Below, in pieces: positions 2,294 through 57,542 of a stretch of DNA of 64,000 nt. The stretch's first letter is position 1. Each line of letters starts with the position of its first letter. The translations under genes and the position numbers were made by a program. The stretch covers positions 102,471-166,470 of the forward strand of contig CAVYNY010000001.1 of assembly GCA_963769935.1 (NCBI GenBank). Reading direction: 5' to 3'. The notes beneath the pieces are model-generated. The model was given only the letters and a program-made list of their open reading frames with translations, was not told the origin of the DNA and did not search any database. The DNA is from an uncultured delta proteobacterium. Its GTDB lineage: Bacteria > Desulfobacterota > Desulfobacteria > Desulfobacterales > JAFDCJ01.

Positions 2294-2393
2294 CCCTGGC
2301 CCAGACCGTTTTTAACATAAATCTGATTCTATCTATTTTTTTAAACTGGGACAAACGTACTTTAAATTCTCAGTACCTCGCACCAGGGCGGGC
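2294..2393 (+). mobile_element. Family B 100-bp fixed-end element, copy 1
   Basis: CCCTGGCCCAGACCG...TCGCACCAGGGCGGGC; ends shared with 11701 and 57442. Confidence 0.75.
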
Positions 2394-2661
2394 CATCATT
2401 CCACGGCCGATGTTTACTTCTCCGACCTCGCCGCCAGGACCAGGTTTTCAATATTCGAAAGAAATTCTTGCATCAATTGCAGTTAACCTGACCGCAAATT
2501 GCCGTTCAGCAAAGGAGAAGATTTGCAGATCCAAAAAAGATTAATGAAATATTTATAATTACCGATAAAGAATATACCCGCTATTTTGAATTAACCACCC
2601 GGTTGGCAAAAGCGGAATCAATCGCGGAAACAAGATAAAATAAATACAGAAGGAAGGAATT

Positions 2662-3210
2662 ATGGATCAAAGTTCATTTTTAAGAGTATGCAAATTTTGT
2701 GGTGAAGACTTTGCCAAGTCCGTCAAAGAGTGTCCCCACTGCGGCAAAAAGGTGCAATCCGGCATGTTGTTGATGCTGATTATAGGAATCGGCTGTCTGG
2801 CACTAGCGGCGGCATTTGCGATTCCCATCAGCAAAAAGCAGCCGGACGATATGAAAATGATCGCAATTGCTCCGGTTGACCAGGTCGACACGGTCGAACT
2901 GGCAACCCTGTTTAACGACCGCAAGGTGCAAATAACGCCGCGGGCACAGAGAAAAGCCCGGGAAATCACCGGTAAGGTTGTTCAGTGGGAACTGGAGGTT
3001 TTTGTAGTCACAAAATCCGCCGATTGCTATCAGGTTCTGACGAAACCAACTAAAAGTGCTCCTGGAACCCTTTCGACGGTTTACCCCCGCAACAGTCAGC
3101 AACAAAGCTACCTGGACAGCATCAAGCCGGGAATGACCATCCCAATAAAGGGCAAAATCGCAGGCATCCGGCAGGGAAGGATTAAGATTAATCCGGCTTT
3201 TCTACTTTAA
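2662..3210 (+). CDS. Zinc-ribbon membrane protein with probable C-terminal OB-like domain
   Basis: CKFC-x9-CPHC followed by one TM helix. Confidence 0.65.
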   Translation: MDQSSFLRVCKFCGEDFAKSVKECPHCGKKVQSGMLLMLIIGIGCLALAAAFAIPISKKQPDDMKMIAIAPVDQVDTVELATLFNDRKVQITPRAQRKAREITGKVVQWELEVFVVTKSADCYQVLTKPTKSAPGTLSTVYPRNSQQQSYLDSIKPGMTIPIKGKIAGIRQGRIKINPAFLL

Positions 3211-3226
3211 CATGCGCAGCATACTG

Positions 3227-3323
3227 TAATTAATCCGCCGGAGCTTCGATCGAACGACTTTTGTCAGTTTTAAAAGAAAACTCCAAAATCATGAATGCAT
3301 TATTCTTGAGGGCGGATCAATCC
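3227..3323. mobile_element. Family D element with TAATTAATCCGCC terminal inverted repeats
   Basis: Left end GTAATTAATCCGCCGGA(G/C)CTTCG shared with 36647; right end GGCGGATCAAT. Confidence 0.6.
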
Positions 3324-4109
3324 GCTGACGATCGACTGGAGCTTACCGGCATCATTGGAGAATATCCATTCCACGCCGCGGTTGATTTCCCGGAACAGGC
3401 AGTTTTTCGATCCGGGATACCCGGTACCGACCTTTTGTCCCTGTGCCTGGTGCCTTGCCAACAGGGCATTGTTCAGCAAGAAATAGTGCCCGGCCACTCC
3501 CCTCATTTTTTTTTCCAGGGCCAGGTTGCTGAGCCGATATAAGTTCCACTGGGCAATCGGGATAAACGTCGATGCCGGCACGAAAGTGATCAGGTCGAAC
3601 ATTTGGCGGGTAAGAGACATCAGATGATAGTCGATCTGCGGCTCGACAGCAGAAAAACAGTGCTTTAAAATCTGATTTTGCTGCGCAGGATCAGGATAGT
3701 CTTCGGCTTTTATCTCGACCATCAAATGCAATTTTTTGCCGAACCTCTGAATCACCTCCGACAGTGTAGGAACCTCAGGGCACTCGGACTTCAACGTCTC
3801 CAGTTTGACGTCCGCCACGGTGAGATTCAGGCCGAAGACTCTTTGCAGATTCGCATCATGGATCACGACCGGCCGCAGGTCTTTTGTCCAGCGAATATCG
3901 AACTCGATTCCCCAAACCCCTGCAGCGCCGGCTCGGTCAAAGGCCGGCAGGGTGTTTTCGAATACGCTGCGGTTGTCGTATTCACCGCGATGAGAAACGA
4001 TTTTACAATTCGCTAACTGCTCTAATCCTGGAAACGGCTGCGGCCATAACGCATAGAAACCGTCGAGCACCCTTTCCAATCCATTTTGAATATAAGAAAA
4101 GAATTTCAT
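3300..4109 (-). CDS. Glycerophosphodiester phosphodiesterase family protein
   Basis: SHRG...ENTL, IEFDIRWTKD, VIHD and VEIK motifs. Confidence 0.9.
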   Translation of the reverse strand: MKFFSYIQNGLERVLDGFYALWPQPFPGLEQLANCKIVSHRGEYDNRSVFENTLPAFDRAGAAGVWGIEFDIRWTKDLRPVVIHDANLQRVFGLNLTVADVKLETLKSECPEVPTLSEVIQRFGKKLHLMVEIKAEDYPDPAQQNQILKHCFSAVEPQIDYHLMSLTRQMFDLITFVPASTFIPIAQWNLYRLSNLALEKKMRGVAGHYFLLNNALLARHQAQGQKVGTGYPGSKNCLFREINRGVEWIFSNDAGKLQSIVSGLIRPQE

Positions 4110-4295
4110 TTTAATCCCAAATCGATTATGAACAGAGCTTACGGAATTGGTGATTAAACCATCTTTTCCGGTTTCCGCAGACACGGGATTTCAGCAGCGC
4201 TCCAACCGGCTGGAATCTATTATACACGCAAAGCCCACGAAGGCAATCACGAAAATCTCACTCCTGCCGACAGCACAGGTGTTGCAAGGGTCGAA

Positions 4296-5156
4296 ATGAA
4301 AAAATCGGAAAATTCCAGCCGGGAAAATCGGGGCACCATCCCCGGCAATGTTATTGAAATAAAAAAAGCAGCGGCTATTATTCAAAAAGTCCAGGTTAAT
4401 ATACCGTTTACCATGTTGTATGATACCTATCTGGATGCATTCATAACCAACGGTCTAAATCCGGAAATCGGTCTGGATGCCGCTGCCTTAGACCGATTTA
4501 CTTATGAGGATTTCAGTTGCATTGCCGGGGAATTTCGTAAACACTCCAGGACCGTCACGCTTCACGGACCCTTTATCGATTTAAACCCCGGTTCCATGGA
4601 TTCTGCAGTGCGGCGGGTGACCGAACAGCGCTTCGAACAGCTGATCGAGCTGGTTCCGCTTTTTGAACCCAAATCGGTAGTCTGCCACGCCGGCTACGAT
4701 GCCAAACGATATGATTATTTCAAAGACACCTGGTTGGAAAAATGCCTGGAACTCTGGTCCCGGCTGGCAAGCCGTCTGGCCGAAAACGGTTCCCGGCTGA
4801 TGCTGGAAAATGTATATGAAGATGGCCCGGAAGATATCCAGGTCATCTTTGAAAGGCTTAAAGACCCTGCGGTCGGATTTTGCCTGGACAGCGGCCATGT
4901 ATCCGCTTTCAGCCAATCCGATCTTGAAATGTGGCTGGAAGTTCTGGGACCGTATCTCGGACAGCTTCATCTCCACGACAACTTCGGCAACTCGGATGCG
5001 CACCTGGCTCTTGGCAGGGGCGACATCGATTTTAGCAAAATATTCAATTACTTGAAAAATACCGCCGCTAAAAGACCCATTATTACCATAGAGCCCCACC
5101 GGGAAACCGAACTCTGGCCGAGTTTGGAGTATCTCGCCCAGGCGTGGCCGTGGTAA
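4296..5156 (+). CDS. Sugar-phosphate isomerase/epimerase (AP endonuclease 2 TIM barrel)
   Basis: LHGPF, LENV, CLDSGH and LHLHDN...DAHL motifs. Confidence 0.85.
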   Translation: MKKSENSSRENRGTIPGNVIEIKKAAAIIQKVQVNIPFTMLYDTYLDAFITNGLNPEIGLDAAALDRFTYEDFSCIAGEFRKHSRTVTLHGPFIDLNPGSMDSAVRRVTEQRFEQLIELVPLFEPKSVVCHAGYDAKRYDYFKDTWLEKCLELWSRLASRLAENGSRLMLENVYEDGPEDIQVIFERLKDPAVGFCLDSGHVSAFSQSDLEMWLEVLGPYLGQLHLHDNFGNSDAHLALGRGDIDFSKIFNYLKNTAAKRPIITIEPHRETELWPSLEYLAQAWPW

Positions 5157-5284
5157 GCCTGCCCGCCATTTCTGAAATAGATCGACCCCCAGGCGCAAAT
5201 TCTTATTAAAGCCTGATCAAAAACGGCCGATATACACCTTGTATCGGTTGAAAAATCATTTAATCTCCCATCAGCAGGAAGGCC

Positions 5285-6763
5285 ATGACAGTGATCAACC
5301 AGGACGGAAATGACACCGGCAATAAAGCTGCGCCGGTGCCTATAGAAGCCAAGACAATGGTCCTCAGCCGGCCCAAAGAAAAAGTCATAGGGCCGCGGCT
5401 GGTTTGCACTACTGCGTCCGGTGAAAGCAAGATCTTTCCTCTCAACAAGTCGCAAATTGTGATCGGGCGGTCCGTGGAAGCCGATCTCAATCTTCTCGAT
5501 CCACTGGTATCCCGCAAACACTGCGTCATTGAAGAGCGCAACAACACGTATGTCGTCCGGAATGTCAGCACTACCAATCCCCTGTTGCTAAACGACCAGG
5601 CGATCGTCGAAAAGCGTCTTTATGCCGGAGACCAACTGAAAATAGGCTCTGCCGCACTGGCATTCATTTCCGACCGTCCCGAGGATGTTAAAAGACTTGA
5701 CACGAAGATGATCAGACAAAAACAGCAGTGGGGAATTCGCTTCTGGATTGCTGTTTCCCTGCTGCTGGTTTTTACGGTTTATTATGGGTATTTTCAGGCC
5801 TACACGCCGCTCAAGATTAAGTGGGCTCTAAACTCAGTAGCCAAACAGATTCAGGCGGGAAAATTCATATCCGCTCAAAATACACTCAAACATATTTTGG
5901 ATCTGGACTTGCCTCTGGAGCAGAGCCATCAGGCAATGGAGCTGCTTGCGCAAACGGCGCTTGCAATCACGGAAGAAAAATACCAGCATGAAGATCTGGA
6001 TTCGGCAATGGAATATCTGAAGTCGTATCTGGCTGAATACGGTGCCGGTAAACAAGCGGAAATTCTCTGGGATCGGCTGGATTATTATCGTTTGAGTCTG
6101 GCGCAGCGTCTGGAAGGCGAAAAAAAATTTCAACCGGCCTTGAGGGAGTACGCCGCTATAAAGGAAGACAGCATTTATTTCGAAGAAGCACACAAGGCCA
6201 TCCGCCGGTTATGGTTGATACACCAGCAGCAAACCCGCCAGGACCAGACGCTGGCTCAATTGTTGAAGGAGGCTGAAGTCCATTTCCAGGCACAGCAGTA
6301 TCTTAAACCGGTCAATCAAAATGCCTATGTCCTGTATCAGGCCGTTCTCACCCTGGAACCCCGGAATGCGCTGGCCCTCCAACGCATTGACCAAATGAAG
6401 GCATTTTACCGCGAAAACGGTGAAAATTATTTTGCCAAAAAAAATTGGCCCAAAGCCCTATCCTATTTTGAACGCTACTATCTCATCGATACCGACACCA
6501 AGGAAGTAAATAATAAAATGAAATTCTGCCGCGAGAAATTGGCCGACGCCAGAGCCCGGGACCGCGACGCCATTTATGCTGAAGCTTCTTCAAAGAAAAA
6601 GTCACAAAAATCACAGCCAAACCATCAAACGCAGGCTGAAAAGAAAGAACAGATCAAACGCATGTTGGAAGAATCGGGTACCGAAAGCTCCTGGATTATG
6701 AAATATCTTTTCGAAGACCAAAAGAATGAAAAGAATGATAAAGATAACGATAAACCCTGGTAG
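5285..6763 (+). CDS. FHA-domain membrane protein with TPR-like helical region
   Basis: IGRS...VSRKH...STTN FHA motif, one TM helix, helical repeats. Confidence 0.8.
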   Translation: MTVINQDGNDTGNKAAPVPIEAKTMVLSRPKEKVIGPRLVCTTASGESKIFPLNKSQIVIGRSVEADLNLLDPLVSRKHCVIEERNNTYVVRNVSTTNPLLLNDQAIVEKRLYAGDQLKIGSAALAFISDRPEDVKRLDTKMIRQKQQWGIRFWIAVSLLLVFTVYYGYFQAYTPLKIKWALNSVAKQIQAGKFISAQNTLKHILDLDLPLEQSHQAMELLAQTALAITEEKYQHEDLDSAMEYLKSYLAEYGAGKQAEILWDRLDYYRLSLAQRLEGEKKFQPALREYAAIKEDSIYFEEAHKAIRRLWLIHQQQTRQDQTLAQLLKEAEVHFQAQQYLKPVNQNAYVLYQAVLTLEPRNALALQRIDQMKAFYRENGENYFAKKNWPKALSYFERYYLIDTDTKEVNNKMKFCREKLADARARDRDAIYAEASSKKKSQKSQPNHQTQAEKKEQIKRMLEESGTESSWIMKYLFEDQKNEKNDKDNDKPW

Positions 6764-6789
6764 GTCTATGGCAGGCAGAGAGCAAACCG

Positions 6790-8451
6790 ATGGCTAAAGG
6801 CTATCCACCAAAATCGCGGCATTTCGTGACAGGGCTTTTGTTCATTATTTTGATCGCCGGCGGCGGAAGTTCCTGTGCACTTCGGATCCTTCAGCCGACT
6901 CCGGCGCCGTCCATTCTCGAAGAGGCTAAACTTCCATCCCGAGTCGCTATTTTGCCGTTCGTAAACAAAACATCGACGCCCGAGGCCGGCACGCTGGTTC
7001 GCAGGATGTTTTATAATTTTTTCGGCTCGTTGAACTACCAGGATATCGAACCGTTTGTCATCGACGACAATTTAAGAATAAATGAATTGTACGCGGATGT
7101 GATTGCCGGCAAAAACGTGTCGCCGCAAAAACTGGGGCAGCTGCTCGGCGTGGACGCCGTTATATACGGCGAAGTAACCAGTCTGGGAAAAATATTTGCG
7201 CTGGTATATGCCGATAATCAGGCCGGGCTCAAAGCACGGATGGTGCGCTGCGATTCCGGTCAGACCGTCTGGGAGCTTGAACAGACCATCCATATAGAGG
7301 AAGGCGAAGTGCCGATGAGCCCCATCGGATTGGCCACGGCGATATTTAAGACCGCCCTCAGTCACACCCGGGCCACTCACATGAAAGCCGCCGCCGAATT
7401 GTGCATGCAAATGGTCGCAACCATTCCGAACCCGCCCGGGGTTAGTCAACCGCCGCCCAAGATTCAGGCCCTGGTGCACAATGGTGCCGGCCAATTGCTG
7501 GTACCCGGTGATTATTTAAAAGTTGCCATGATTGCTGAAAAAAACCGGCTCGCCAGCTGGAGCCTACCGCCGCTGATTGATAATCTTCCGATGAAAGAAA
7601 AGGAACCGGGTGTTTACATCGGCGCCTACCGGATCAAGGCCAAGGATCGGTTGCCCCACGGGAGGCTGGTGGGGTATCTGCGCGGCAAATCCGGTCTTGG
7701 CAGTCAGTGGGTGGATACGTTGGGACCGATCAAGATCGGCCAACCAACCGTGCTGCCACCCGTAATTGCCAAGGATTATGTCTTAAGCATTGAAAAGAGT
7801 CCCTATCTGGTAAACGATGCGCTGCTGGTCAAGCCCGGCGCCAAGCTAACGATGAATCCCGGAACCGTGATCTGGTTTCGCAGCCTGGGCCTGATCGTCA
7901 AAGGGGAACTTCACATTTTAGGGACCGAAAGTGATCCGGTGCGGTTGTCAAGTCTGGGAGCAGCCGGCTGGAAAGGTATTTTCCTGGACCACAGCCGCAC
8001 CGAAAATGAAATTCGCTATTGTACAATCTCGGATGCCGAATTCGGTTTCAGAGCCAGCAAATCAAAGGTATCAATCCAGAACAGCCAGTTTCAGTACAAT
8101 GTCTGGGGCATAGTAATGGAAGAAAGCAGCGCCGAAATTTCCGCCAGCCTCATTCGAACATCGGAAAAATCAGGCATCGCTGCCCGCAAGGCCAGCATTC
8201 TGGTCAAGGATTCCGTCATCACTGAAAACAGCGCCGGCGGATTTTTGCTGGAAGGCAGCCGGGCCGAAATCGAACACAATAATATTATAAATAACGGCGG
8301 CTGGGAGGTTAAAGTGCTGGATGATAAAGGCCAGGTTAAAGCCGCCCAAAACTGGTGGGGTACCGAGGATCCGATCAAAAACGAGATTGTCGGTCCCGTC
8401 GCCGTCACGCCGATTCTGAAATCACCGATTGCGTTCACGGTTTTGGAATAA
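6790..8451 (+). CDS. Lipoprotein: DUF799/GNA1162-like N-domain plus right-handed beta-helix domain
   Basis: Lipobox-like GSSC; VAILPF...LGVDAVIYGEV; SPYLV...NWWG beta-helix repeats. Confidence 0.7.
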   Translation: MAKGYPPKSRHFVTGLLFIILIAGGGSSCALRILQPTPAPSILEEAKLPSRVAILPFVNKTSTPEAGTLVRRMFYNFFGSLNYQDIEPFVIDDNLRINELYADVIAGKNVSPQKLGQLLGVDAVIYGEVTSLGKIFALVYADNQAGLKARMVRCDSGQTVWELEQTIHIEEGEVPMSPIGLATAIFKTALSHTRATHMKAAAELCMQMVATIPNPPGVSQPPPKIQALVHNGAGQLLVPGDYLKVAMIAEKNRLASWSLPPLIDNLPMKEKEPGVYIGAYRIKAKDRLPHGRLVGYLRGKSGLGSQWVDTLGPIKIGQPTVLPPVIAKDYVLSIEKSPYLVNDALLVKPGAKLTMNPGTVIWFRSLGLIVKGELHILGTESDPVRLSSLGAAGWKGIFLDHSRTENEIRYCTISDAEFGFRASKSKVSIQNSQFQYNVWGIVMEESSAEISASLIRTSEKSGIAARKASILVKDSVITENSAGGFLLEGSRAEIEHNNIINNGGWEVKVLDDKGQVKAAQNWWGTEDPIKNEIVGPVAVTPILKSPIAFTVLE

Positions 8452-8457
8452 GCCCTA

Positions 8458-8578
8458 GGAATGTCGAATGTCGAAGGAATAATGTCGAACGAAGGAATTT
8501 TATCTATTCCATTTCTTTAAAGGCCGGAGCTAAGCGACATCCACAATTTGTCATTCGTCAATCGACATTCGACATTCC
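8458..8578 (+). repeat. Family C palindromic element with AATGTCG/CGACATT arms
   Basis: Inverted heptamer arms around GAAGGAATTTTATC...GGAGCTAAGCGACATCC. Confidence 0.8.
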
Positions 8579-9091
8579 CTATAGTCTTTCCACTATCCAA
8601 TCCTCCAAATCTTTTAGCACCTGCTCTCTTTGCGCCGGCGGTTCATTATAAATTTCATGTTACAATCCCTTATAAACGTGCAGCGTTTTGTCCGGCACTG
8701 CCAGCTTTTCAAAAAATTGCCCGGCAGCCCGCGCACTTACCAGATGATCGTCGCCGGCGACCTGCATCAGCATTGGAATTCGGATGGATGAGACCTGCTG
8801 ATTGACAGTTTCCATGGCCGCCATTAATTCGGTAAAGAAACGGGGGCTGATTCGATCATGAACCAGCGGATCGTTTATATAGGTACGGACGACATTTGGG
8901 TCGTGACTGATTTTGGCGGCATCCAGCTCGTTGCCCAGGGTGAGGCACGGCCAAATGTAAGACATGATGGATCCCAATATCTTTTTCCCGGCGGGTACTT
9001 CGATAACCATCCCCAGGGCCGGCGATGAAGCCAGTACCCCATCAATCATTTTCGGAAATCGCTGGACATAATGAAGTGCGATCAAGCCGCC
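8579..9091 (-). pseudogene. Alpha/beta hydrolase (lysophospholipase-like), 5'-truncated with internal stop
   Basis: Begins at GGLIAL just after the missing GHSM nucleophile motif; TAA at 8660-8662 replaces Tyr in GLYHE; the frame continues HEIYNEP...VERL*. Confidence 0.8.
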
Positions 9092-9247
9092 GTACCTTAA
9101 TTAACTAAACCTCACCAGTTGTCAGGGAGCAAATTACAGCCTTGAATGGACGGTTTATCAGGGCGGATTAATTTGACATTTGACTGGCTTTCTGTCAAGA
9201 GATCGGATGCCATAAAGCAGAAAGGAATGATTCTCTCAGTTAGCGCT

Positions 9248-10849
9248 ATGCATATTAAAGCCGTTTTATTCCATCTTGAAAGTTCGCTGGTTCTGCCGGA
9301 CAGTCTGGCCTTGGCAAATATCAAAGCGTCAATCGGCTGCCCGGTTGATACCGACCCCCTTGATTTTATCCGGAGTCTGAACAACGCCGAGGATAGAAGA
9401 CAAGCCCGGTCCAAACTGGCGCCTCTCGAGCTTGAAGCAGCCGCGAGCTCAAGGCCGTCGCCCGACGCCCGGGAAATTTTGCAATACCTTAATTTGAAGA
9501 ATCTGCGCCTGGGCATAGCCACCGGCGGCAGCCCGGCTCTCGTTGACAACCTGCTGCAAAAGCTGTCCCCTGTCACCGCAGCGGATTTCGATGTGGTCAT
9601 CGACCGCGGTGAACTCCCGGCCTATACCGCGGATACCAATGCCGTTCAGCTTGCGGCCGCAAAAATGAACGTCGCTCCCGACCAGCTTCTCGTCGTGGCG
9701 TCGGACGCGTCGGTTCTGCGGGAGGCCCGGAAATCAGGAGCGGTATCGGTCTATTTTAACCGATCGACAGCGTCCGGGACAATACGTTCCGAAAGTGCCT
9801 ATCAGATATCACAGTTAAGGGAACTCAAACAGATCGTGCGCCTGGGCATCCCCCTGCCCGCCGGCAAACTGCCGAATGATCTATTACGCGAGTTCTTGAA
9901 CCAGTTTGAATTCGATGATCCTTCGATTCTCATCAATCCGGGAATTGGTGAAGATACAGCCGCGGTGGACGTCGGACCCGAGGAGGTACTGGTGCTCAAA
10001 TCGGACCCCATTACCTTTGCTACGGATTCCATCGGCCAATATGCCGTGCTGATCAATGCCAATGATATTGCGACCTCAGGCGCCCGACCCCGCTGGCTGC
10101 TCACCACGCTGTTGTTTCCCTTCGGAGTCACCCCTTCTGAGATCAAGCGGGTGATCGACGAGCTCAAAGAATTTTGCCGGCGCTGGGATATCACCCTGTG
10201 CGGGGGGCACACCGAAATTACGGATGCCGTTACCCGGCCGGTGGTTGCCGGAATGATGGCAGGGACGGTCGCCAGAAAGAATCTGATCGACAAACGCAAT
10301 GTGGCGCCCGGCGACAGGGTGCTGCTCACCAAGGGCGTGGCCGTCGAAGGCACGGCAATTATTGCCCGGGAGTTCGGGAGCCGTTTGGGAAAATTCGGTC
10401 TGACTGAATCGGAGATTGAAAGGTGCCGGCAGTTTTTAACCCATATCAGCATTCTTGCGGAAGCCAGGATCGCCGCAAAATCGAAGGCGACCAGCGCCAT
10501 GCATGACGTCACCGAAGGCGGGCTGGCCACGGCTCTTGAAGAATTGAGCATCGCCTCAGAAAGCCGGATCAAGATTAATACGGATACAATTCCCGTCTTT
10601 GCCGAGACCCGCAAAATCTGTCGGCTGCTGAATATTCAGCCGCTGGGTCTTATCGGCTCCGGCAGCCTTTTGATATGCTGCCGGCCAACCGGTTGTGATT
10701 CCCTGATGAAATCCCTCCGCGAGGGCGGGATCGAAGTCACCTGTATCGGTGAAGTCCTGGAAAAAGGCCAGGGTATTGCCGCTTTTGAAGACGGCCGCCA
10801 AGCGGCCTGGCCTCAATTCGAGGTCGATGAGATAACGCGGCTGTTTTAA
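9248..10849 (+). CDS. HAD-like domain fused to AIR synthase-related (PurM/HypE/ThiL fold) domain
   Basis: N-terminal HAD-like fold; GKLP, PGIGEDTA, NANDIA, GGHTE and MHDVTEGG motifs. Confidence 0.8.
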   Translation: MHIKAVLFHLESSLVLPDSLALANIKASIGCPVDTDPLDFIRSLNNAEDRRQARSKLAPLELEAAASSRPSPDAREILQYLNLKNLRLGIATGGSPALVDNLLQKLSPVTAADFDVVIDRGELPAYTADTNAVQLAAAKMNVAPDQLLVVASDASVLREARKSGAVSVYFNRSTASGTIRSESAYQISQLRELKQIVRLGIPLPAGKLPNDLLREFLNQFEFDDPSILINPGIGEDTAAVDVGPEEVLVLKSDPITFATDSIGQYAVLINANDIATSGARPRWLLTTLLFPFGVTPSEIKRVIDELKEFCRRWDITLCGGHTEITDAVTRPVVAGMMAGTVARKNLIDKRNVAPGDRVLLTKGVAVEGTAIIAREFGSRLGKFGLTESEIERCRQFLTHISILAEARIAAKSKATSAMHDVTEGGLATALEELSIASESRIKINTDTIPVFAETRKICRLLNIQPLGLIGSGSLLICCRPTGCDSLMKSLREGGIEVTCIGEVLEKGQGIAAFEDGRQAAWPQFEVDEITRLF

Positions 10850-11478: not shown

Positions 11479-11700
11479 TGCTCTGAAGCTCCCTGAATAA
11501 GATTTATTTTTAATATGGATTAATATTTTATCCCATTAATTTTTACAAGAGAAATATTCAGTTTCTGATTTAAACTATAATGGCATCGAAGTTTTGTACC
11601 GGAACGGTAGAGTTTGAGGGAGCAGGATGCACGGTTGGGGGAACATGGATCAGTATTCCGGGCGGGCGCTGATCAAAATCACAAATTCCAAATAACAAAT

Positions 11701-11801
11701 CCCCGGCCCAGACCGATTTAATGTCTTAGGTAATTTAGACATCCATGCCCAAGCCAGATCAAGATAAAAGTATAAACTCAGCAAGTCGCGCCAGGGCGGG
11801 C
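11701..11801 (+). mobile_element. Family B 101-bp fixed-end element, copy 2
   Basis: CCCCGGCCCAGACCG...TCGCGCCAGGGCGGGC; interrupts a CAAAT-rich tandem repeat. Confidence 0.75.
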
Positions 11802-11883
11802 TCAAACAAATTGCAATGACCAAAATACAAAATTCCAAACGGGGACTTCATTTGTTTGGGATATCGCTTCAGATAATATGAAT

Positions 11884-11986
11884 CTGGAAGATAAGACATT
11901 ATTGGAATCTCGTGCAGCTAACAGAAACAATTCCTCATAGCGCACTCTCCAAGGCGTAGGCTACGAGCCGAAGGCCAGGGCGGGCT
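11884..11986 (+). mobile_element. Family B2 103-bp dispersed repeat, copy 1
   Basis: 97/103 identical to 35738-35840 by eye; ends GCCAGGGCGGGC like family B. Confidence 0.85.
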
Positions 11987-12061
11987 GAAACCTGACACCT
12001 GAAACCTCTAATCTTCCCACTGTCATCTGTCCTCTGACCTCCGTCATCCGTCCTCTGGATG

Positions 12062-24979: not shown

Positions 24980-24980
24980 A

Positions 24981-35662: not shown

Positions 35663-35748
35663 CCACATTTCCATCAATAACCGGTAGTCACCTTATTCGC
35701 GCCTGGCGAAAGTTGGGTTTTGAAGTAATTCGGATAACTGGAAGATAA
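35659..35748 (+). pseudogene. hicA: HicA-like toxin, truncated after 29 codons
   Basis: MTTFPSITGSHLIRAWRKLGFEVIRITG; ATGA overlap with the hicB stop; cut at a family B2 element before the catalytic GSH. Confidence 0.75.
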
Positions 35749-35840
35749 GACATTATTAGAATCTCGTCCAGCTAACAGAAACAATTCCTCATATCGCACT
35801 CTCCAAGGCGTAGGCTACGAGCAGGAGGCCAGGGAGGGCT
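35738..35840 (+). mobile_element. Family B2 103-bp dispersed repeat, copy 2
   Basis: 97/103 identical to 11884-11986. Confidence 0.85.
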
Positions 35841-43096: not shown

Positions 43097-43148
43097 TTTA
43101 CCCTTCCTTTCCCTTTTGGTTTTCAGGTTAGCTATACACGAGGCCCAA

Positions 43149-44243: not shown

Positions 44244-44246
44244 AAC

Positions 44247-47065: not shown

Positions 47066-47071
47066 GTCGGA

Positions 47072-49755: not shown

Positions 49756-49765
49756 GGCTCCTTGT

Positions 49766-49885
49766 GGAATGACGAATGATCGAATCGAGCAAATAAATAA
49801 CGAAGGAATTCTATCATTTTATATTGAAATTTGATTGAAAAAGGTGGAGCGAAGCGACATCCATCGTTCGTCATTCGTCATTCCT
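49766..49885 (+). repeat. Family C palindromic element with AATGACG/CGTCATT arms
   Basis: Core GAAGGAATTCTATC...GGAGCGAAGCGACATCC. Confidence 0.8.
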
Positions 49886-49905
49886 AAGGCTTCCAGCCGG
49901 AAAGA

Positions 49906-50133
49906 TCAGATCGCTCAGGCTCTCCCGTTAAAGCCGATGGTCACATTTCCGCCTTCAACGATCACCGGGATCTTTCTGGCGCCCTTGGAGAGCTTCAACA
50001 TGCTGTCGCGATGACCGGCATCTTTTACGACATTAAAATATTCGAACGGCCGTCCGTCTCTGGCAAATGCTTCACGAGCTGCCCGGGTATAGGGTCAAGC
50101 GTCCTTGCCAAAAATCAGAATTTTATCAGCCAT
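49906..50133 (-). CDS. UXX-star-type glutaredoxin-like selenoprotein, 75 aa, two Sec
   Basis: MADKILIFGKDAUPYT...KIPVIVEGGNVTIGFNGRAUAI*; TGA at 50095-97 and 49915-17; GGAGGG RBS. Confidence 0.88.
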
Positions 50134-50295
50134 CGGTTCCCCTCCCGTTTTGGAAAAGCCGAAACCATCTTTCTGAGTCGATATGTGCCGATTTGGTTGC
50201 AAAAACCCTAACAGCCATTATCTTTCGTGTCAACATTTCTAAATTGACAAATCATTGAATTTAACAGATATTGTCTTTTTCTAAGGCGGTTACTT

Positions 50296-50577
50296 ATGAT
50301 GACGGACCGGCAGGAATTAAGCCGAACTACAACTATTAGCAATGAGCTCGGCCTGCATGCGCGGTCGGCCGCCCGAATTGTTGAAATTGCCGGAAATGCC
50401 GCCGCGAATATCTGGCTGGTGAAAGACGACCAGAAGGCCGACGCGTCCAGCATCGTGGATATCCTGACGCTGGCTTGTGAAAAGGGTACAAGAATCAGGT
50501 TTATCATCGAGAACCCGGCGGACACCGACATCTTAAATGCCCTGGTGGATCTCGTTGATAGCGGATTTGGGGAATAG
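50296..50577 (+). CDS. ptsH: HPr phosphocarrier
   Basis: NELGLHARSAA and ADASSI motifs. Confidence 0.93.
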   Translation: MMTDRQELSRTTTISNELGLHARSAARIVEIAGNAAANIWLVKDDQKADASSIVDILTLACEKGTRIRFIIENPADTDILNALVDLVDSGFGE

Positions 50578-50583
50578 ACCATA

Positions 50584-52344
50584 ATGTCGCAACCGGTTGC
50601 AGAAATAAAACTCAAGGGAATCAATGCTTCTCCCGGTATATGTATCGGTAGGGCCTACCTGGTCGATCGCGAAGGCGTCGAAATTGTCGAAAAGTATTCT
50701 ATCGACCGGAAAAATCAGTCAAAAGAGATTAAGCGTTTTAAGGCGGCCGTCAAAAAAGCAGCGGATGACATTCGCCAGGTCATCAAAAATAGTCCGGAAG
50801 AACTCCGGCGCGCCCAAATTCTTGAAACCCATCTCGCCCTGCTGACAGACAAGATGCTCTACGGCAAATCCATTGACATGATTGAAAAAGACGGGGTTAA
50901 TGCCGAATGGGCCCTCAAGCAGGTGGTGTCCAATCTCAAGGCGGTGTTTCTGGGTATGGCCGATGCATACTTGCGAGAGCGCGCTTCGGACATCGTGCAT
51001 GTATCGGACAGCATCATGCGCAACCTGGTCGGAGTTGAAATTGAAAATATCGCCGAGATCGACAAGCGCGTCATTCTGGTAGCCCGCGACCTGTCTCCGG
51101 CCGACACCAGCCAGATCAACCTCGGAAAAATTATGGGCTTTATCACGGACCACGGCGGCAAAGCCTCGCACACCGGGATCGTCGCCCAGGCCCTTGAGAT
51201 CCCGGCCGTGGTCGGACTTGAGCACGCTACCAGCCGGATCAAAAGTGAAGATCTCATCATTGTCGACGGCAATACCGGTATGGTAATCGTAAATCCAAGC
51301 GAAAATTCGCTGGTAGAATATGAAGAGCGCAAAATTCAATACGAAGCATTCAGAGCGGTCGTCACGCGGGATAGTCATTTAAAAGCGGAAACAACCGACG
51401 GCATTCAATTGAAAGTCATGGGCAATATTGAACTCCCGGAAGAGGTGGTTGCCGTAAAAAATTACGGCGGCGACGGCATCGGCCTTTACCGGACCGAATT
51501 TCAGTTTATGAATCGTCCGATTTTTCCGGGTGAAGAAGAATTGTTTGAAAAGTACAAGGATGTGGTTGAAGTCATGGCGCCCAAGCCCGTCACCATTCGT
51601 ACCCTGGATATCAACGGCGACAAGGCGCTTGCCGGTCAATCCGGTCATGACGAGGCCAACCCGGCCCTCGGTCTGCGCTCGATACGCTACTGCCTCAAAA
51701 AACCGGATGTGTTCCTTACCCAGCTGCGGGCCATATTGAGAGCGGCGGCCTTCGGCAATGTTCGCATCCTGTTTCCCATGATCTCAGCCTATTTTGAAAT
51801 ATGCGAAGCAAGAAAATTGCTGGACCAGGCAGCCGAATCTCTCGCCAGAGACGGCCTGCCGTACAACCGGGAGATTGATATCGGTATCATGATCGAAGTC
51901 CCTTCGGCGGTCATCATGGCCGATTTTCTGGCGGATAAAGTTGATTTCTTCAGCATCGGTACCAATGATCTCATCCAGTATGCCCTTGCCATTGACAGGG
52001 GCAACCAGCAAGTCGCTCATCTCTATCAGCCGCTGGATCCTGCCGTAATCCGGCTGATCAAGCATACGGCGGATGTGGCCAAAGACAAGGGGATAAAGGT
52101 ATACATGTGCGGTGAAATGGCGGGCACGGCCCATCACATCCCCCTGCTGTTGGGCCTCGGCATGGACGAGTTGAGTATGAATCCTCAATCAATTCCGCAT
52201 ATCAAACGGGTGATTCGATCCTTGAGCCTGGGCGATGCCAGATCATTCATCCAGGAGGCCCTTAAAAAGCGAACGGCCAGGGGGATCTTTGGCCTGGTGC
52301 GGGAAACCTACGGTGATATCCTGGCGGATCAGACCTATCGCTAA
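50584..52344 (+). CDS. ptsI: PEP-protein phosphotransferase, enzyme I
   Basis: GGKASHTGI, GIGLYRTEF, FFSIGTNDL and MCGEMAG motifs. Confidence 0.96.
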   Translation: MSQPVAEIKLKGINASPGICIGRAYLVDREGVEIVEKYSIDRKNQSKEIKRFKAAVKKAADDIRQVIKNSPEELRRAQILETHLALLTDKMLYGKSIDMIEKDGVNAEWALKQVVSNLKAVFLGMADAYLRERASDIVHVSDSIMRNLVGVEIENIAEIDKRVILVARDLSPADTSQINLGKIMGFITDHGGKASHTGIVAQALEIPAVVGLEHATSRIKSEDLIIVDGNTGMVIVNPSENSLVEYEERKIQYEAFRAVVTRDSHLKAETTDGIQLKVMGNIELPEEVVAVKNYGGDGIGLYRTEFQFMNRPIFPGEEELFEKYKDVVEVMAPKPVTIRTLDINGDKALAGQSGHDEANPALGLRSIRYCLKKPDVFLTQLRAILRAAAFGNVRILFPMISAYFEICEARKLLDQAAESLARDGLPYNREIDIGIMIEVPSAVIMADFLADKVDFFSIGTNDLIQYALAIDRGNQQVAHLYQPLDPAVIRLIKHTADVAKDKGIKVYMCGEMAGTAHHIPLLLGLGMDELSMNPQSIPHIKRVIRSLSLGDARSFIQEALKKRTARGIFGLVRETYGDILADQTYR

Positions 52345-52350
52345 TTAATT

Positions 52351-52812
52351 ATGGAAAAAAACCACATCAAAATAATTGCTGTGAACCGCAAAGCCCGGCA
52401 CGACTTTTTTATCGATGATGAGTATGAGGCCGGAGTGGTCCTGCAGGGGACCGAGGTAAAATCCCTTAGACTCGGCAAGGTCAATTTAAAGGATTCCTAT
52501 GCCAGGATTAAAGACGGCGAGGTGTTCGTTTACCAGTTGCATATCGGCCCCTACCCTTTTGCCTACTATGGAAATCACGATCCGTTGCGAGCCCGCAAGC
52601 TTCTCCTGCACAAACAGGAAATTAAACGCATATATGCCAAGGTGAACGAAAAGGGCCACACCCTGGTGCCTCTCAAACTCTATTTTAAGGGCGGCAAGGT
52701 TAAAATTTCCCTGGCACTGGCCAAAGGCAAGCGTCAATACGACAAGCGCGAGTCCATCAAGCGCCGCGATGAGAAAAGAGACCTTGATCGCGCCCGCAAG
52801 CAATATATGTAA
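52351..52812 (+). CDS. smpB: SsrA-binding protein
   Basis: NRKARHD, EAG..LQGTEVKS, RKLLLHK and GKRQYDKR motifs. Confidence 0.97.
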   Translation: MEKNHIKIIAVNRKARHDFFIDDEYEAGVVLQGTEVKSLRLGKVNLKDSYARIKDGEVFVYQLHIGPYPFAYYGNHDPLRARKLLLHKQEIKRIYAKVNEKGHTLVPLKLYFKGGKVKISLALAKGKRQYDKRESIKRRDEKRDLDRARKQYM

Positions 52813-52862
52813 TTGTGGAAGCAACCGCGGAATCCATTCTGCTTCCAGGCCTGCCAGCTTCT

Positions 52863-53261
52863 TTACTTGGTCGTCGTCACCACCGCACAGGGGGCGTTCA
52901 GGATAACGTATTGGGCCGTCGAGCCGAACAGCAGCTTGCCGACTTTAGAGCGCCGTCTGATTCCCAGGCAGATTTCTCTGCTGTTTTTCACCGTCAGATG
53001 GCGTACGATCTCTTCGCCGGCCGTGCTGGAACTTACCAGAAGAGTGGTTTTAAACGGGATTTTCTCGCCGTTCATAAGGGTTTTAATTTCCTCATCCAAT
53101 TTTTGTTCCAGCCGGTCGATGTCGGCATAATCCAGATCGGCGCCATGCTCCTCGGCTCGCACCACCTCGATCTCATCTTCAAACGCCTGCGCATGGGCCT
53201 TGGCCAGCGACAGCGCCTCCTTGGCCGCTTCGGACCCGTCATATGCAACCATGATACTCAT
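52863..53261 (-). CDS. Universal stress protein
   Basis: MVAYDGS...LLFGSTAQYVILNAPC. Confidence 0.9.
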   Translation of the reverse strand: MSIMVAYDGSEAAKEALSLAKAHAQAFEDEIEVVRAEEHGADLDYADIDRLEQKLDEEIKTLMNGEKIPFKTTLLVSSSTAGEEIVRHLTVKNSREICLGIRRRSKVGKLLFGSTAQYVILNAPCAVVTTTK

Positions 53262-53450
53262 TTTGATCTCCTGCTAATATAAAATTTGAAGAATCCCGGC
53301 CCCGAGGGCCAGGCATTGACTTCATCCCAGCTTCCGGCTCGTAGAGCCTACGTTCCATTATTCCATTAAGATTCCACCCCGAAGCAAGCCCCAAAGTTTA
53401 ATTATGAATCGGTTCTTGTCAACAGCTGATTTTGCATCTATAAAGTATAG

Positions 53451-53957
53451 ATGACGCCTTTATACGACGGCATCGTCCGTTTATTTTACAGATTGGCCTA
53501 CAGGACCCTGTTGTCACTATGGTTTTTTACCAGACCGACCGTTTACGGCGTCTATATTGCCGTATGGCACCAGGAAGAGCTGTTGATTATTAAAAACTCC
53601 TATAAAGAGCGATTTACCATACCATGCGGGCGAATAAAACGTGGGGAAGATTCAGCTGAAGCCGCTGTCCGGGAGCTAAAAGAAGAAGTCGGCATTGAAG
53701 TCGAGAAAAGCCGACTAAAACCCATCGGCGAATACACCGCCAAACACAAATATGCACGCGATGTAGGCAAATTCTTTGAAATCGAGATGACCGAACTGCC
53801 GCTCATACGTGTGGACAACCGGGAGGTTGTCCTGGCACGGTTCATGCCTCTTGAGCGCGCCCGCAAGTTGGACCTGAATCCAACAGTAGAAGCCTGGTTG
53901 GGAAACCGGCAGCAACTCAACAAACTCAATCAACTCAATAAACCCAAAAACTCATAA
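53451..53957 (+). CDS. NUDIX hydrolase
   Basis: GRIKRGEDSAEAAVRELKEEVG Nudix box. Confidence 0.9.
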   Translation: MTPLYDGIVRLFYRLAYRTLLSLWFFTRPTVYGVYIAVWHQEELLIIKNSYKERFTIPCGRIKRGEDSAEAAVRELKEEVGIEVEKSRLKPIGEYTAKHKYARDVGKFFEIEMTELPLIRVDNREVVLARFMPLERARKLDLNPTVEAWLGNRQQLNKLNQLNKPKNS

Positions 53958-54419
53958 CAGCGCATTTTTCAACAGCGTCATGGCTGCCTGGCCGCCTTCC
54001 GATTGCGCATAATCCAGAATGACACTGGTGAATTTGCTGACCATGTCCGGCGATAATCCGAGTTTGCCGAAGCTGTCCGCCAGAGCGGATACCCCTTGAG
54101 CCGATCCGGATGAGCTACCGAACAAGGAAGTCGCCTTGGATGCCAAACCACCGACTCCACCGGCTTCAGGGGCGGCTTTGACCAGCGAATCGATACCGGG
54201 CAATGCGCTTAGCAGCTGGGAGTAATCGCCGGCACTCATGTTGCTCTGCGCTTGTTTAAAAATCGCGCCGGCCCCGCCCTCGGCCTGTGACTGGCTCACA
54301 CCGAGCTGATCAACCAATTGTCCGATCAGTGTGCTGGTATCGGCCGAAACAGACCCGGCCACCCCGAACATTAATATTGAGAATAAAACCGAGGCCTTGA
54401 TCAATAGCTTTGTTTTCAT
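53952..54419 (-). CDS. DUF2780-family secreted protein
   Basis: Signal peptide; QLGVSQSQAEGGAGA and F.KLGLSPDMV motifs. Confidence 0.8.
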   Translation of the reverse strand: MKTKLLIKASVLFSILMFGVAGSVSADTSTLIGQLVDQLGVSQSQAEGGAGAIFKQAQSNMSAGDYSQLLSALPGIDSLVKAAPEAGGVGGLASKATSLFGSSSGSAQGVSALADSFGKLGLSPDMVSKFTSVILDYAQSEGGQAAMTLLKNALL

Positions 54420-54678
54420 TTCCCCCTCCTTCAATTTAGCGGCCCGATATGCCCCATAACTTGCTATAATTGCGTTAAATACTGACCCTCTTGAACAATA
54501 GCTGAAAAGCAACAAACGAATAATAAGCATACCGGTTAAAGTATGCAATGGAGATGGTTCGTGAAATAAAAACGTCAGACCAAAACGAACCGCTAATGTG
54601 ATTTGGGCCTCGTTTTTATCTTCTCCTCGACGATTTGGTTAATCGCCTGCCGGTTCTGCATCCGCAGATCGTTCGTTC

Positions 54679-54829
54679 AAGGCCGAAGGCGCCATAGAGC
54701 CCCGCAAGCAGGTCGGCGATGGGCAGCGACAGCCGAATCGGACCGCTCTCCCGGCTCCCGTTGACGCTCATCAATCCGCTCATGGTCTGAGCGATGAAGT
54801 CAAAGGCCGGTCGACCGGCTGATGGGCCG
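54679..54829 (-). pseudogene. Fragment of a class III (CaiB/BaiF) CoA-transferase
   Basis: RPAFDFIAQTMSGLMSVNG...PIADLLAGLYGAFG, no start codon. Confidence 0.7.
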
Positions 54830-54835
54830 CCGGGC

Positions 54836-55768
54836 TCAAGCTGCCGTTTGGTTTTGAGGCGGATATTGTCTCAGTCGAAGACCAGCCTTCATTACCTGAC
54901 CCGGCAACGTGCGTCCGATCACCTGTTCGACCAGCCTGGCGCATTCAATTAGTTTTGGAAGGTCCACGCCGCAATCAAGCTCCAATTCCCGGATCAGATA
55001 GACCAGGTCTTCCGTTGCCACATTGCCCGTTGCACCGGGAGCAAAAGGACAACCGCCCAAACCGCCGATCGAGGATTCAAATCGTTGATATCCCAATTGA
55101 AGTGCTTCATACACATTCACCAGCCCGATGCCGCGGGTATTGTGGAAGTGAAGCGCGAGCTCGATTTCCGGGAATCGGTCTTTGAGGTACCGCGTGGTTT
55201 GACGTACCTCCGGCGGCGTCGCCATGCCGGTGGTATCTCCTAAAGTGACCGTGGCTATTCCCAAAGCCCGCATGCGCTCAACAATGCTGCCGACCTGTTG
55301 CGGGGCGACGTTGCCTTCGAAGGGGCAGCCAAACGCTACCGCCACCGCACCGCGCAAGGGTATTCCGGCTTTGGCCCCGATCCGGGCGACGCTTTCGAAG
55401 CCTTTCAGAGATTCAGCGATTTTTTGATTGACGTTGCTCTTATTGTGGCTCTCGGTAGCCGAAACGAAAACCACCATTTCATCTATTCCGGCTTGGGCGG
55501 CATTTTCAGCGCCCTTCGGATTTGGAACCAGCGCCGCCAGGCGCAACCCCGGCACCCGGTTGACGCCGGCCACGACTTCAGCGGCATCGCGCAATTGCGG
55601 GATGGCCTTGGGCGATACAAAAGAGGTCACTTCGAAGTTGCGCAATCCGGATTGGATAAGCTGATTGACAATCTCGATTTTTGTTGCAGTTGGAATAAAT
55701 TCGCGCTCCATCTGGAAGCCGTCGCGGGATCCAACTTCAACAATGGTAATTTTCGATGAAAGCGTCAT
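54836..55768 (-). CDS. Hydroxymethylglutaryl-CoA lyase
   Basis: EVGSRDGFQ, AFGCPFEG, HFHNTRG and GLGGCPFAPGATGN motifs. Confidence 0.93.
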   Translation of the reverse strand: MTLSSKITIVEVGSRDGFQMEREFIPTATKIEIVNQLIQSGLRNFEVTSFVSPKAIPQLRDAAEVVAGVNRVPGLRLAALVPNPKGAENAAQAGIDEMVVFVSATESHNKSNVNQKIAESLKGFESVARIGAKAGIPLRGAVAVAFGCPFEGNVAPQQVGSIVERMRALGIATVTLGDTTGMATPPEVRQTTRYLKDRFPEIELALHFHNTRGIGLVNVYEALQLGYQRFESSIGGLGGCPFAPGATGNVATEDLVYLIRELELDCGVDLPKLIECARLVEQVIGRTLPGQVMKAGLRLRQYPPQNQTAA

Positions 55769-55784
55769 ATCGTGGTCTCCTGTC

Positions 55785-55895
55785 AAGCGTTTCGGCCGGA
55801 TCAGAAATATGCAAGGTAGAACCGGGTTTGAAATAATAGCGGAAGATGCCGTTCCTGATTTTTTGATAGGCTTGATCGGCCAAAGATAGTCGATT
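55785..55895 (-). pseudogene. GntR-family HTH N-terminal remnant
   Basis: SLADQAYQKIRNGIFRYYFKPGSTLHISDPAETL, running directly into the lyase RBS. Confidence 0.6.
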
Positions 55896-56276
55896 CGGTT
55901 TCGTTGAACCGGCTGCCGGCTTTAGAGCACCTGCCTTCAGAGCTGAACCGCGTTGAAGCAGATAATCAAACTATTGCGCTGCCGGATCGCTATCTGACAC
56001 TGCATTATAAAAAAATCTGTAAAAAATACAAGTTGGATATAAAGAAAGCCCAAGTAGCTTCCCTCCCCAGGGGCGGGATTGAAGGAGGAGGGGTAAAATA
56101 GACAGCATTCCTTTTACTTGCTCTTTCTATAAATCCGGATTTACTAATTCTTGACAAAACTCATGATTCAGCTTACTTTAGTGGCACACTCGTTCTTTCA
56201 CATACCCCTTTATTACCCACCATAACAACTTTCAGCTTTGAGCTAACAGCTGGGAGCTGCAAACGAAGTTTGTGCT

Positions 56277-56632
56277 GGGGGCGAAACGGATTCGACGGGG
56301 ACAAAGAAGCTTTGGCTGCATACCGAGCTTTCCTGTCTGCTCGTTAAACGACGGGAACTTAAACATAATCGCAGATGATTATGCATATGCTCTGGCCGCA
56401 TAAATAGGCCAGCGCCCTGTCAGGTTAATCCTGCGGACCTGATAAGGACGTCGACTAGCGGGATAGCCATCCCGGCTGCCTGTGACGGGAAGGGCGAAAC
56501 TTAAGCGGGCTGGCCGTTTAAAAATCCTGCCTGAAGGAGTTTTAAACGGTAAGATTCAAATTTCAGGCTAAGTATGTAGATGCCCGAGTGGAATGTTTGC
56601 GGACGCGGGTTCAACTCCCGCCGCCTCCACCA
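56277..56632 (+). ncRNA. ssrA: tmRNA
   Basis: 5' GGGGGCGAAACGGATTCGAC; 3' GCGGGTTCAACTCCCGCCGCCTCCACCA; tag ORF ADDYAYALAA* at 56371-56403. Confidence 0.97.
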
Positions 56633-56795
56633 GTCTTCGTTCGAAACGCAGTGCAGAACGAAGACTGTCACGGCGTAGCCTTCAGGCGAAGCCGGACTCA
56701 CTATCAATACCTATCCGTTTGCGTTTCGAACTACGCCTTGGCAAGCCGATATAAACACAGTCTTCGTTCGAAACGCAGTGCAGAACGAAGACTGT
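56631..56795 (+). repeat. Two identical 38-nt hairpins with a structured spacer
   Basis: CAGTCTTCGTTC-GAAACGCAGTGCA-GAACGAAGACTG-T at 56631-56668 and 56758-56795. Confidence 0.9.
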
Positions 56796-56805
56796 AAGTG
56801 ACAAT

Positions 56806-57257
56806 ATGAAAGGCTTCCACTATGTTTACATCCTTGTCAGCCCAGCCGCCGGCCAAAACAACGGCCGGTCTGATCATAAAAGAAACTTTTGGAAATCGGA
56901 CACAGTTGGATTTAATATCACGCCCACTTCGTTAGAGCTCACAGAGACCGCAGAGAACATTTTTCTTTCGCCGCAGGCGCCTGTAAACCCAGACCTCTGT
57001 GATCTCCGAGCGCTCTGTGTGAGATGTAGTTTCATATGAGTGAACAGGATGAAACGCGTCACTATACCGGTCTCACCGAAAATTTGCAAGATCGCCTTAA
57101 AGCCCACAACGCCGGTCAAGTATCCCATACATCCAAATTCCGACCGTGGCGAATCGAAACGGCAATCGCCTTTCGGTCCAAGGAAAAAGCTTCCGAATTC
57201 GAAAGATACCTAAAGTCTCACGCCGGCAGAGCTTTTGCGAACAAAAGGCTCTGGTGA
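56806..57257 (+). pseudogene. Small GIY-YIG nuclease (UPF0213/YhbQ-like) split by a 200-bp insertion
   Basis: Removing 56841-57040 gives 83 aa: MKGFHYVYILVSEQDETRHYTGLTENLQDRLKAHN...FERYLKS... Confidence 0.88.
56841..57040 (+). mobile_element. Family A GTCAG-targeted element with about 140-nt cargo
   Basis: Same ends as 31636-31803; precise removal restores the host ORF. Confidence 0.88.
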
Positions 57258-57441
57258 ATTCAGTCACCTTTGAGTTGCATGCGAAGTGTTCAAACCGAAC
57301 TCGACCTTAAAGTCAGTTGCCTTTACCACCGGCTTAACCGTTCGCTCCTGCTTAAGTGAAGCTCCGCCCGCAGAGCGGGAGGCCTCAGGAAGCCCCCTGC
57401 AAGGGGGCTGGATTAAGCGCTTATCAATTTAATTCCGAAAC

Positions 57442-57542
57442 CCCTGGCCCAGACCGTTTGGGCATAGGTTTTTGTTTAAAATATCGGATGATCAAACGCC
57501 CCGGCCGTGCATCTGAACCTAATAAGTCGCGCCAGGGCGGGC
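57442..57542 (+). mobile_element. Family B 101-bp fixed-end element, copy 3
   Basis: CCCTGGCCCAGACCG...TCGCGCCAGGGCGGGC inside a CGAAA-type heptamer array. Confidence 0.75.

Follow-up and report, generated by a model that had tools for sequence, protein, structure and literature searches.

The locus raises the question of what a short DNA unit is that keeps both its ends and its length while its interior differs from copy to copy. The window analysed here, a 64,000-nucleotide (nt) stretch of an uncultured delta proteobacterium of the Desulfobacterales (GCA_963769935.1, contig CAVYNY010000001.1, positions 102,471 to 166,470), had been read, from its sequence alone, as carrying three such elements. 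All three are present with the ends ascribed to them, at 2294-2393 (100 base pairs, bp), 11701-11801 (101 bp) and 57442-57542 (101 bp). Each of the two end motifs is matched exactly at three places in the window; shuffled windows, with 2-3 mismatches allowed, gave means of 1.05 and 1.44 matches per end motif. A paired-end search of the whole genome that holds the window (G000; 8.0 Mb, 41 contigs, 96.7% complete), a check proposed with the original description, returned 29 copies of 99 bp (n=5), 100 bp (n=3), 101 bp (n=16) and 102 bp (n=5). Because 29 paired copies of near-constant length were recovered, the pairing of the ends is not a matter of chance. None of the 29 lies inside an open reading frame (ORF) of at least 150 amino acids. 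The element is a real family and apparently an undescribed one. No published description of it was found in the literature covered, outside which lie subscription papers, ISfinder and supplements, and the accessible parts of PMC4679880 and PMC6006769 do not describe it.

The family occurs in two length classes with an empty range between them. Among 369 distinct pooled copies, 90 measure 63-67 bp, none 68-97 bp and 275 98-108 bp, and four are longer nested forms; this pool was enriched by length-specific searches, and one genome may enter it by more than one route. When metagenomes were scanned for the right end only, so that length was left free, 126 matches appeared. Of these, 74 had a partner left end within 112 bp, giving four copies of 64 bp and 70 of 98-108 bp; the remaining 52 right ends belonged to nested forms or decayed copies, lay at contig ends or were chance matches. 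An order-level sample, an even draw of 251 genomes from 140 genera, held 66 copies of 41-71 bp in a single genome (G221), one more in G022 and one chance-like match; its 72-96 bp range held only 11 matches, all in G221 and every one with a doubled left end. In G221, 81 of the 102 parsed copies measure 63-67 bp (59 exactly 64) and 21 measure 98-106 bp. Three of five control repeat families of G000 vary widely in length; an indel-rate benchmark proved unreliable, as unrelated pairs were aligned with spurious gaps. The proposal of a non-autonomous unit under a spacing constraint therefore holds, in a stronger form than first put forward, and the family is very probably a non-autonomous element with an inert spacer and a length rule.

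The two classes differ by about one interior unit (~37 nt). Of 253 copies with a long interior, 183 match the short-class profile in its 3' half, and in some lineages both halves match; the long class may have arisen by addition of a second ~37-nt interior unit. A single 28-nt form, with both ends and no interior, was also seen (L443), nested in a left end and near other short right-end variants.

The interiors themselves are neither random nor unrelated. They cannot be aligned by eye, as the sequence-only reading had stated; its further claim that they are unrelated did not survive a leave-one-out profile and a similarity network, which identify them as distant homologues. The first 157 copies formed 57 interior clusters, and held-out clusters scored above their own shuffles in 43-55 of the 57 for every segment, the middle included. 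In the network of 253 middles, 199 were joined above the largest of 6000 shuffled scores, 39 fell into seven smaller groups and 15 stood singly. Seven interior subfamilies are recognised within G000, and mean identity inside each of the four largest is 70-83%; identity between clusters is 51%, against 48% for shuffles. Differences from the cluster majority, mostly transitions, affect 16.7% of interior sites and 1.5% of end sites. No adenine bias was seen among the interior substitutions, and adenine-directed mutagenesis was rejected on this ground as the source of interior variety.

The ends are kept beyond chance, as had been claimed. Subfamilies A-D of G000 show 15 mismatches over 696 end sites where ~73 would be expected at the interior rate, and 0.6 end mismatches per copy where the search filter alone would leave 2-2.6. 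This bears on a conventional explanation, in which the family is an old type II MITE (miniature inverted-repeat transposable element) of a lost DDE insertion sequence (IS), carried by duplication of its host repeats, with the two lengths reflecting two founders and few indels. Type II MITEs do keep only their ends (PMC10969869; here and below, published statements draw on the accessible parts of the papers cited). When the interiors were searched against G000, 12 extra loci appeared, comprising 10 element remnants and two short chance-level matches, and such decayed copies would suit an old family. Subfamilies A-D each occur in one host-repeat type, which suggests passive co-duplication, and in subfamily D flank and interior identity correlate (rho 0.69, p=0.027). 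Against co-duplication, flank identity does not track interior identity in subfamilies A, B and C, and the ends are intact in precisely these flank-tied subfamilies. Short-class representatives share a mean interior identity of 37% at exactly 64 bp, whereas QMITE, Chunjie and three of the five G000 control families vary widely in length. The element also lacks both a true terminal inverted repeat and a duplication of several bases, and it occurs in a single orientation. We regard this explanation as weakened, and as very unlikely.

The suggestion that the element is a cassette of captured or guide-like sequence is not supported either. No interior has a donor locus in G000 outside the family. 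The proposed comparison with phages and plasmids likewise gave no sign of captured cargo: one interior compared with phages had no match, and another compared with plasmids had partial, chance-level matches only. Interior folding was unremarkable in both length classes and on both strands (mean z -0.22 to +0.20), a conserved interior helix did no better than column shuffles, and no significant internal periodicity of 9 or 37 nt was found across all lineages. Interior-target complementarity was null in both classes by longest-match and 9-mer tests (p 0.24-0.92 and p 0.38-0.75). The element does resemble TIGR arrays in its unit of about 36 nt with variable sequence (bioRxiv 10.64898/2026.09.09.750476), but box C-9 nt-box D pairs of the TIGR type numbered 3, 0, 11 and 6 against 3, 4, 11 and 6 in shuffles, the copies are dispersed rather than arrayed, and no Tas gene was seen alongside. 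It differs from a CRISPR-like cassette of captured spacers in that its interiors are not of independent origin and match no host donor nor, for the one interior compared with each, phages or plasmids. Because the interiors form a continuum of homology and are unstructured, with no donor and no target pairing, the cargo reading is not supported.

The junction shows how the element sits in its target. Removal of a copy had been said to restore the host repeat; it does, but only when one C stays behind, which means that the first and last C of the element represent one shared base. When one C is kept, agreement with the repeat phase is best at 45 of 64 informative sites and tied at 7. The first base is C in 152 and the last in 155 of 157 copies. 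The element's second base stays C whatever the target's next base (133 C..T, 129 C..C and 1 T..C, of 313), which would be consistent with a one-strand exchange between C and a pyrimidine (Y) and argues against a two-base core of the IS110 type. The chosen site follows the pattern A-[ATC]-C before Y at 136 of 235 sites, compared with 392 of 2347 neighbouring Cs. Relative to those neighbours, the chosen C more often has A two bases upstream (0.67 vs 0.31) and a pyrimidine after it (0.88 vs 0.52), and rarely has G directly upstream (0.02 vs 0.17). The copies lie in repeats of heptamer type; repeat structure of period 6-9 surrounds 42% of the 235 sites and 3% of shuffles.

Several observations indicate movement. 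Unrelated targets carry copies whose interiors are 89-92% identical (L252/L091, L279/L074, L096/L107 and L083/L097). The element also nests in its own copies at two spots, one within the left end (after position 13 or 14) and one within the right end; nesting in opposite orientation was not found in any collected locus. In G221, 31 of the 102 parsed copies are nested, with two- and three-level nesting, and collapsing similar contexts leaves 24 nested events.

Lineages tend to return to the same kind of site. The share of pairs with the same flank type falls from 80% at interior identities of 90% or more to 1-4% below 70%, and of the 28 within-lineage pairs of nested events in G221, 27 lie at one common hot spot within different outer copies (p=0.0004). 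One explanation would be that the interior is a guide or target code directing each lineage to its site type. The tie between subfamilies and flank types and the G221 pairs are what such a code predicts, and one interior-target position pair reached a family-wise p of 0.013 over 51 events; that signal disappears, however, when one event per lineage is kept (p=0.58). The null complementarity tests in both classes, the lack of a scaffold fold and of box C/D pairs above shuffle, and the near-identical interiors at unrelated targets all speak against a code, which we consider very improbable; a weak form of the guide idea stays faintly alive through the lineage reuse of target type. As no guide was detected, we infer that site reuse stems from short homology between donor flank and target, in a homing-like manner. 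Bursts in time or a hidden interior code are alternatives for this behaviour.

Smaller inserts share these hot spots. A family of branched hairpin micro-inserts of 31-40 nt has 44 matches in G000, 42 of them exactly 33 nt, and 42 of the 44 have C at both ends with a pyrimidine next. The 33-nt insert occupies the right hot spot of the element and a 24-nt insert the left one; the latter, a hairpin insert with a shared C, was observed in the left hot spot at L028, L035, L092, L102, L262 and L076. The micro-insert family is present in 23 of the 251 order genomes, reaching 100 matches in G243. The 33-nt insert occurs in 12 of 22 carrier genomes of the element and in 11 of 229 others.

Taken as a gene-less element of two lengths that shares one C with its target, the family would be moved in trans by a putative HUH-like (Y1/REP-type) single-strand transfer, a reading to which we give an even chance. 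A single-stranded intermediate is suggested by the single shared base, the single orientation and the inserts of 24-33 nt that travel with the element; the 33-nt insert, too short for a double-stranded circle and obeying the same junction rule, supports this route. The enzyme would recognise the paired ends, cut one strand after C and join it to the target C, and length may be read by a protein ruler. The closest known chemistry is that of the TnpA-REP HUH enzymes, which cut single strands between C and T or between C and A and rejoin them by strand transfer (PMC8266576); the sequence of the element junction is compatible with it.

A retro-type element could also leave one shared base. Here a short RNA would be reverse-transcribed at a nick after C, its terminal G pairing with the target C, while a ribonucleoprotein sets the length and read-through into the flanks gives site reuse. 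Such a process accounts for the one shared C, the single nesting orientation, the doubled left ends and the lineage site reuse, and reverse transcriptases of the group II intron type, so named from inspection of their sequences, are present in G000 in multiple copies. A conserved RNA fold is absent, however, as is the adenine-biased mutation of diversity-generating retroelements, the ends are precise, and orientation relative to neighbouring genes is not consistent. We therefore judge a retro-type origin unlikely.

The element might instead be the partner of a double-strand recombinase, either IS110/IS1111-like, as for MITEPpu9, or a tyrosine recombinase, with a minicircle whose looping geometry fixes the length. 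A loop requirement would account for the forbidden lengths, IS110 elements target repeats and have gene-less passengers (PMC12288879), and joined ends form a 7-bp inverted repeat around two bases, seen once, at L196. This recombinase would have to work with one shared base, and the reciprocal second-base outcome of a two-base core appears in 1 of 313 cases. The targets vary too much for a single guide, lengths of 63 and 100-102 bp differ in helical phase (by arithmetic at 10.5 bp per turn), and the 24-33-nt inserts that occupy the hot spots of the element fall short of the size that such circles need. In G000, the one genome searched for IS110, none of the four IS110 loci carries the element ends, and its own IS110s were rejected as mobilisers. 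Overall, a double-strand partner appears quite unlikely.

No gene-bearing form was found in the genomes and ends sampled. A longer version enclosing an ORF, whose existence had been suggested for checking, was not found in G000 within 3 kb at no more than one mismatch per end. In five relatives, none was seen at the sampled 20 of 27 right-only and 20 of ~47 left-only ends, which were decayed copies or copies with a micro-insert, nor was any found among the 126 metagenome right ends of the collections sampled. One left-like match lies 1077 bp upstream of a metagenome right end, in GC-rich coding-like DNA (L207). The 57 of 91 neighbouring ORFs that were scanned for a mobiliser in cis are varied host genes, with one PD-(D/E)XK match (GxxExxY-type), and G000 contains no REPtron-like bracket. 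One REP-flanked Y1 transposase in G221 (L426, G221:C139) has a REP stem containing the same 8 bases as the right terminus of the element.

A number of results weigh against single-strand transfer by a Y1/REP-type enzyme and against the addition of interior units. No mobilising enzyme was found in the loci and genomes searched, and the element ends are absent from the flanks of every Y1 locus inspected, 10 of the 11 in G000 and 3 in G221. The L426 type, the one candidate class in the RAYT co-occurrence profile, was rejected as mobiliser: it is present in 5 of 22 carriers and 59 of 229 others, and absent from G000. The GTAG tag is missing from both ends. Replication-strand bias of the element is absent, at 8 of 19 scored among 25 copies (p=0.65), with weak skew and few copies; a first strand-bias signal (5/21) came from a loose pattern with chance coding matches and was gone after filtering. 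The strand bias of the 33-nt insert (27/33) cannot be separated from that of its host MITE, whose empty copies are biased as well, and the p-value for co-occurrence of insert and element is overstated, because kinship among the genomes inflates the statistic. Circle junctions, another proposed check, were absent among the matches listed in four public runs, and the only head-to-tail junction seen is the one at L196 (right end, one C, left end). The single-strand route itself also gives no reason for the length rule. As to the added unit, only 135 of 253 long interiors match the short-class profile in their 5' half, lag-37 autocorrelation of long interiors is not significant, and a two-unit origin is clear only in some long lineages; a third length rung near 139 bp was not found in five genomes.

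The junction at L196 is followed by only 17 bases of a second copy, resembling rolling-circle overshoot. The host MITE mentioned above is a dispersed MITE-like element with 59 matches in G000 and a strong replication-strand bias, with 5 of 41 on the G-rich strand; 11 bases of its terminus also stand in the left end of the studied element, it hosts many 33-nt inserts, and it adjoins several subfamily A copies.

A broader reading would treat the element and the 33-nt and 24-nt inserts together as cargo of an undescribed Desulfobacterota insertion system, with one-strand joining between C and a pyrimidine, cargo steps of ~37 nt (28, 64 and ~102), lineages sent back to origin-like sites, and target choice inherited with no base-pairing guide inside the element. 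We give it a small chance of being right. An enzyme able to place arbitrary short cargo through a one-base overlap would have both mechanistic and practical interest; should the enzyme prove to be a known Y1 transposase, the element would still found a new REPIN-like family.

Comparison with described systems places the element beside several of them. It works like a REPIN or a MITE and is a member of neither by the tests run. REPINs of Pseudomonas fluorescens SBW25 have conserved ends and a variable spacer at discrete spacings, and the element shares with the REPIN/RAYT system the absence of genes, a size of ~100 bp, conserved ends, a variable spacer in discrete length classes and an intergenic position (PMC3337134). 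The cognate TnpA-REP enzymes cleave single strands after C (PMC8266576), and the junction sequence of the element is compatible with such a cut. Unlike REPINs, its ends are dissimilar rather than two inverted REPs and lack the tag, its spacer has no hairpin, its copies nest in themselves, and no RAYT co-occurs in the one candidate tested. The type II MITEs QMITE and Chunjie also have no ORF, conservation confined to the ends and many dispersed copies; such MITEs span 50-500 bp, and these two vary widely in size (PMC10969869). Classical MITEs have terminal inverted repeats of ~10-50 bp, whereas the inverted match between the ends here is only 6-7 bp, with the right arm 5 nt inside and an alternative imperfect register. 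The one-base overlap in place of a multi-base target duplication, the fixed orientation and the tight lengths are further differences, and no partner IS with the element ends was found in G000 or in sampled relatives and metagenomes.

The likeness to MITEPpu9 and the bridge-RNA IS110s lies in a gene-less passenger within host repeats and a very short shared core (PMC12288879, PMC11208160). MITEPpu9/ssr9 recombines with its IS110 partner ISPpu9 at an AG dinucleotide (PMC12288879), whereas the element shares one base, has no fixed target and contains no structured RNA or target-matching guide; nor do the four G000 loci supply an IS110 with its ends. The IS200/IS605 elements offer a further parallel. 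Gene-less derivatives of them are named PATE. IS200/IS605 elements insert strand-specifically 3' of a short AT-rich word with no multi-base duplication, as the element appears to do (PMC5027513, PMC8266576). Its target word, a real preference, is degenerate in comparison, no lagging-strand bias was seen, neither end has a clear hairpin of its own, and no TnpA with the element ends was found. The ends of a non-autonomous element usually lead to a known transposase; those of the present element did not. No family checked was found to combine two lengths and an empty range across near-saturated divergence with a one-base junction, self-nesting in one direction at two fixed positions, and reuse of target type by lineages. 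The element also gives a sharp point of entry to two poorly understood features of these bacteria, their heptamer-repeat arrays and their micro-inserts.

The family belongs to bacteria of the sulfate-reducer type, and its taxonomic distribution is patchy, which fits horizontal spread. The left motif is present in 17 of 18 congeners, in a few as single chance-level matches, with at most 38 matches per genome. A GTDB scan gave at least 122 loci; among the matches listed, 77 of 80 titles were Desulfobacterota, Deltaproteobacteria or loosely labelled Pseudomonadota, and the other three were Bacteroidales or Dehalococcoidales bins, which may be misbinned. The 251-genome draw held 146 long-class copies in 22 genomes and 17 of the 140 genera. 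In IMG/VR, five of eight matches are real copies, and a Mu gp36 gene adjoins the copy on one contig. Copies were observed in phage contigs at L188, L189, L191, L192 and L194, two of them with different interiors on one 6.5-kb contig, and phage-borne copies are a possible route of horizontal spread. G221 (2.9 Mb) carries ~100 copies, while four congeners have no match to the paired patterns; this difference amounts to a natural experiment for finding the enzyme.

Within the window, all copies lie on the plus strand. Copy 1 (2294..2393; left end 2294-2307, right end 2378-2393) has an interior of subfamily A, with nine intact copies in the genome, and sits in a CATTCC-type repeat. Copy 3 (57442..57542; ends 57442-57455 and 57527-57542) belongs to subfamily E, with two intact copies, and is hosted by a CGAAAT-type repeat; a gene for transfer-messenger RNA (tmRNA) at 56277-56632, ~800 bp upstream of it, was the only match in an Rfam scan of the window. 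Two decayed copies were found beyond the three originally described. Copy 4 (~11877-11985, left boundary approximate) has lost its left end and has a subfamily C interior; a 31-nt hairpin insert (11945..11975, plus strand) interrupts its right end in the right hot spot. This insert, a member of the 33-nt micro-insert family, starts and finishes on the shared C. Copy 5 (~35738-35839, left boundary approximate) resembles it, at 85% identity over 148 nt, flank included, and likewise contains a nested 31-nt hairpin micro-insert (35799..35829, plus strand).

Copy 2 (11701..11801; ends 11701-11714 and 11786-11801) has a subfamily B interior, with six intact copies, in a CAAAT-type repeat, flanked by a TetR-family gene and an RNase II/R-type gene. 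The left part of its host tandem repeat (11676..11700, plus strand) has 39 empty matches to the host junction in G000. Contigs from public runs join 11700 directly to 11801/11802 and so skip the copy; the sides of these joints are short, at 24-31 bases, and the joints may come from empty paralogues of the repeat instead of from empty alleles. Of 14 congener loci, 11 could be read across the gap that holds copy 2: the copy is in none of these 11, and one has an independent copy with another interior. This gap between the TetR and RNase II/R-type genes (window 11560-12060; L316-L329) is a landing zone of fast turnover, and different repeat arrays occupy it in almost every congener.

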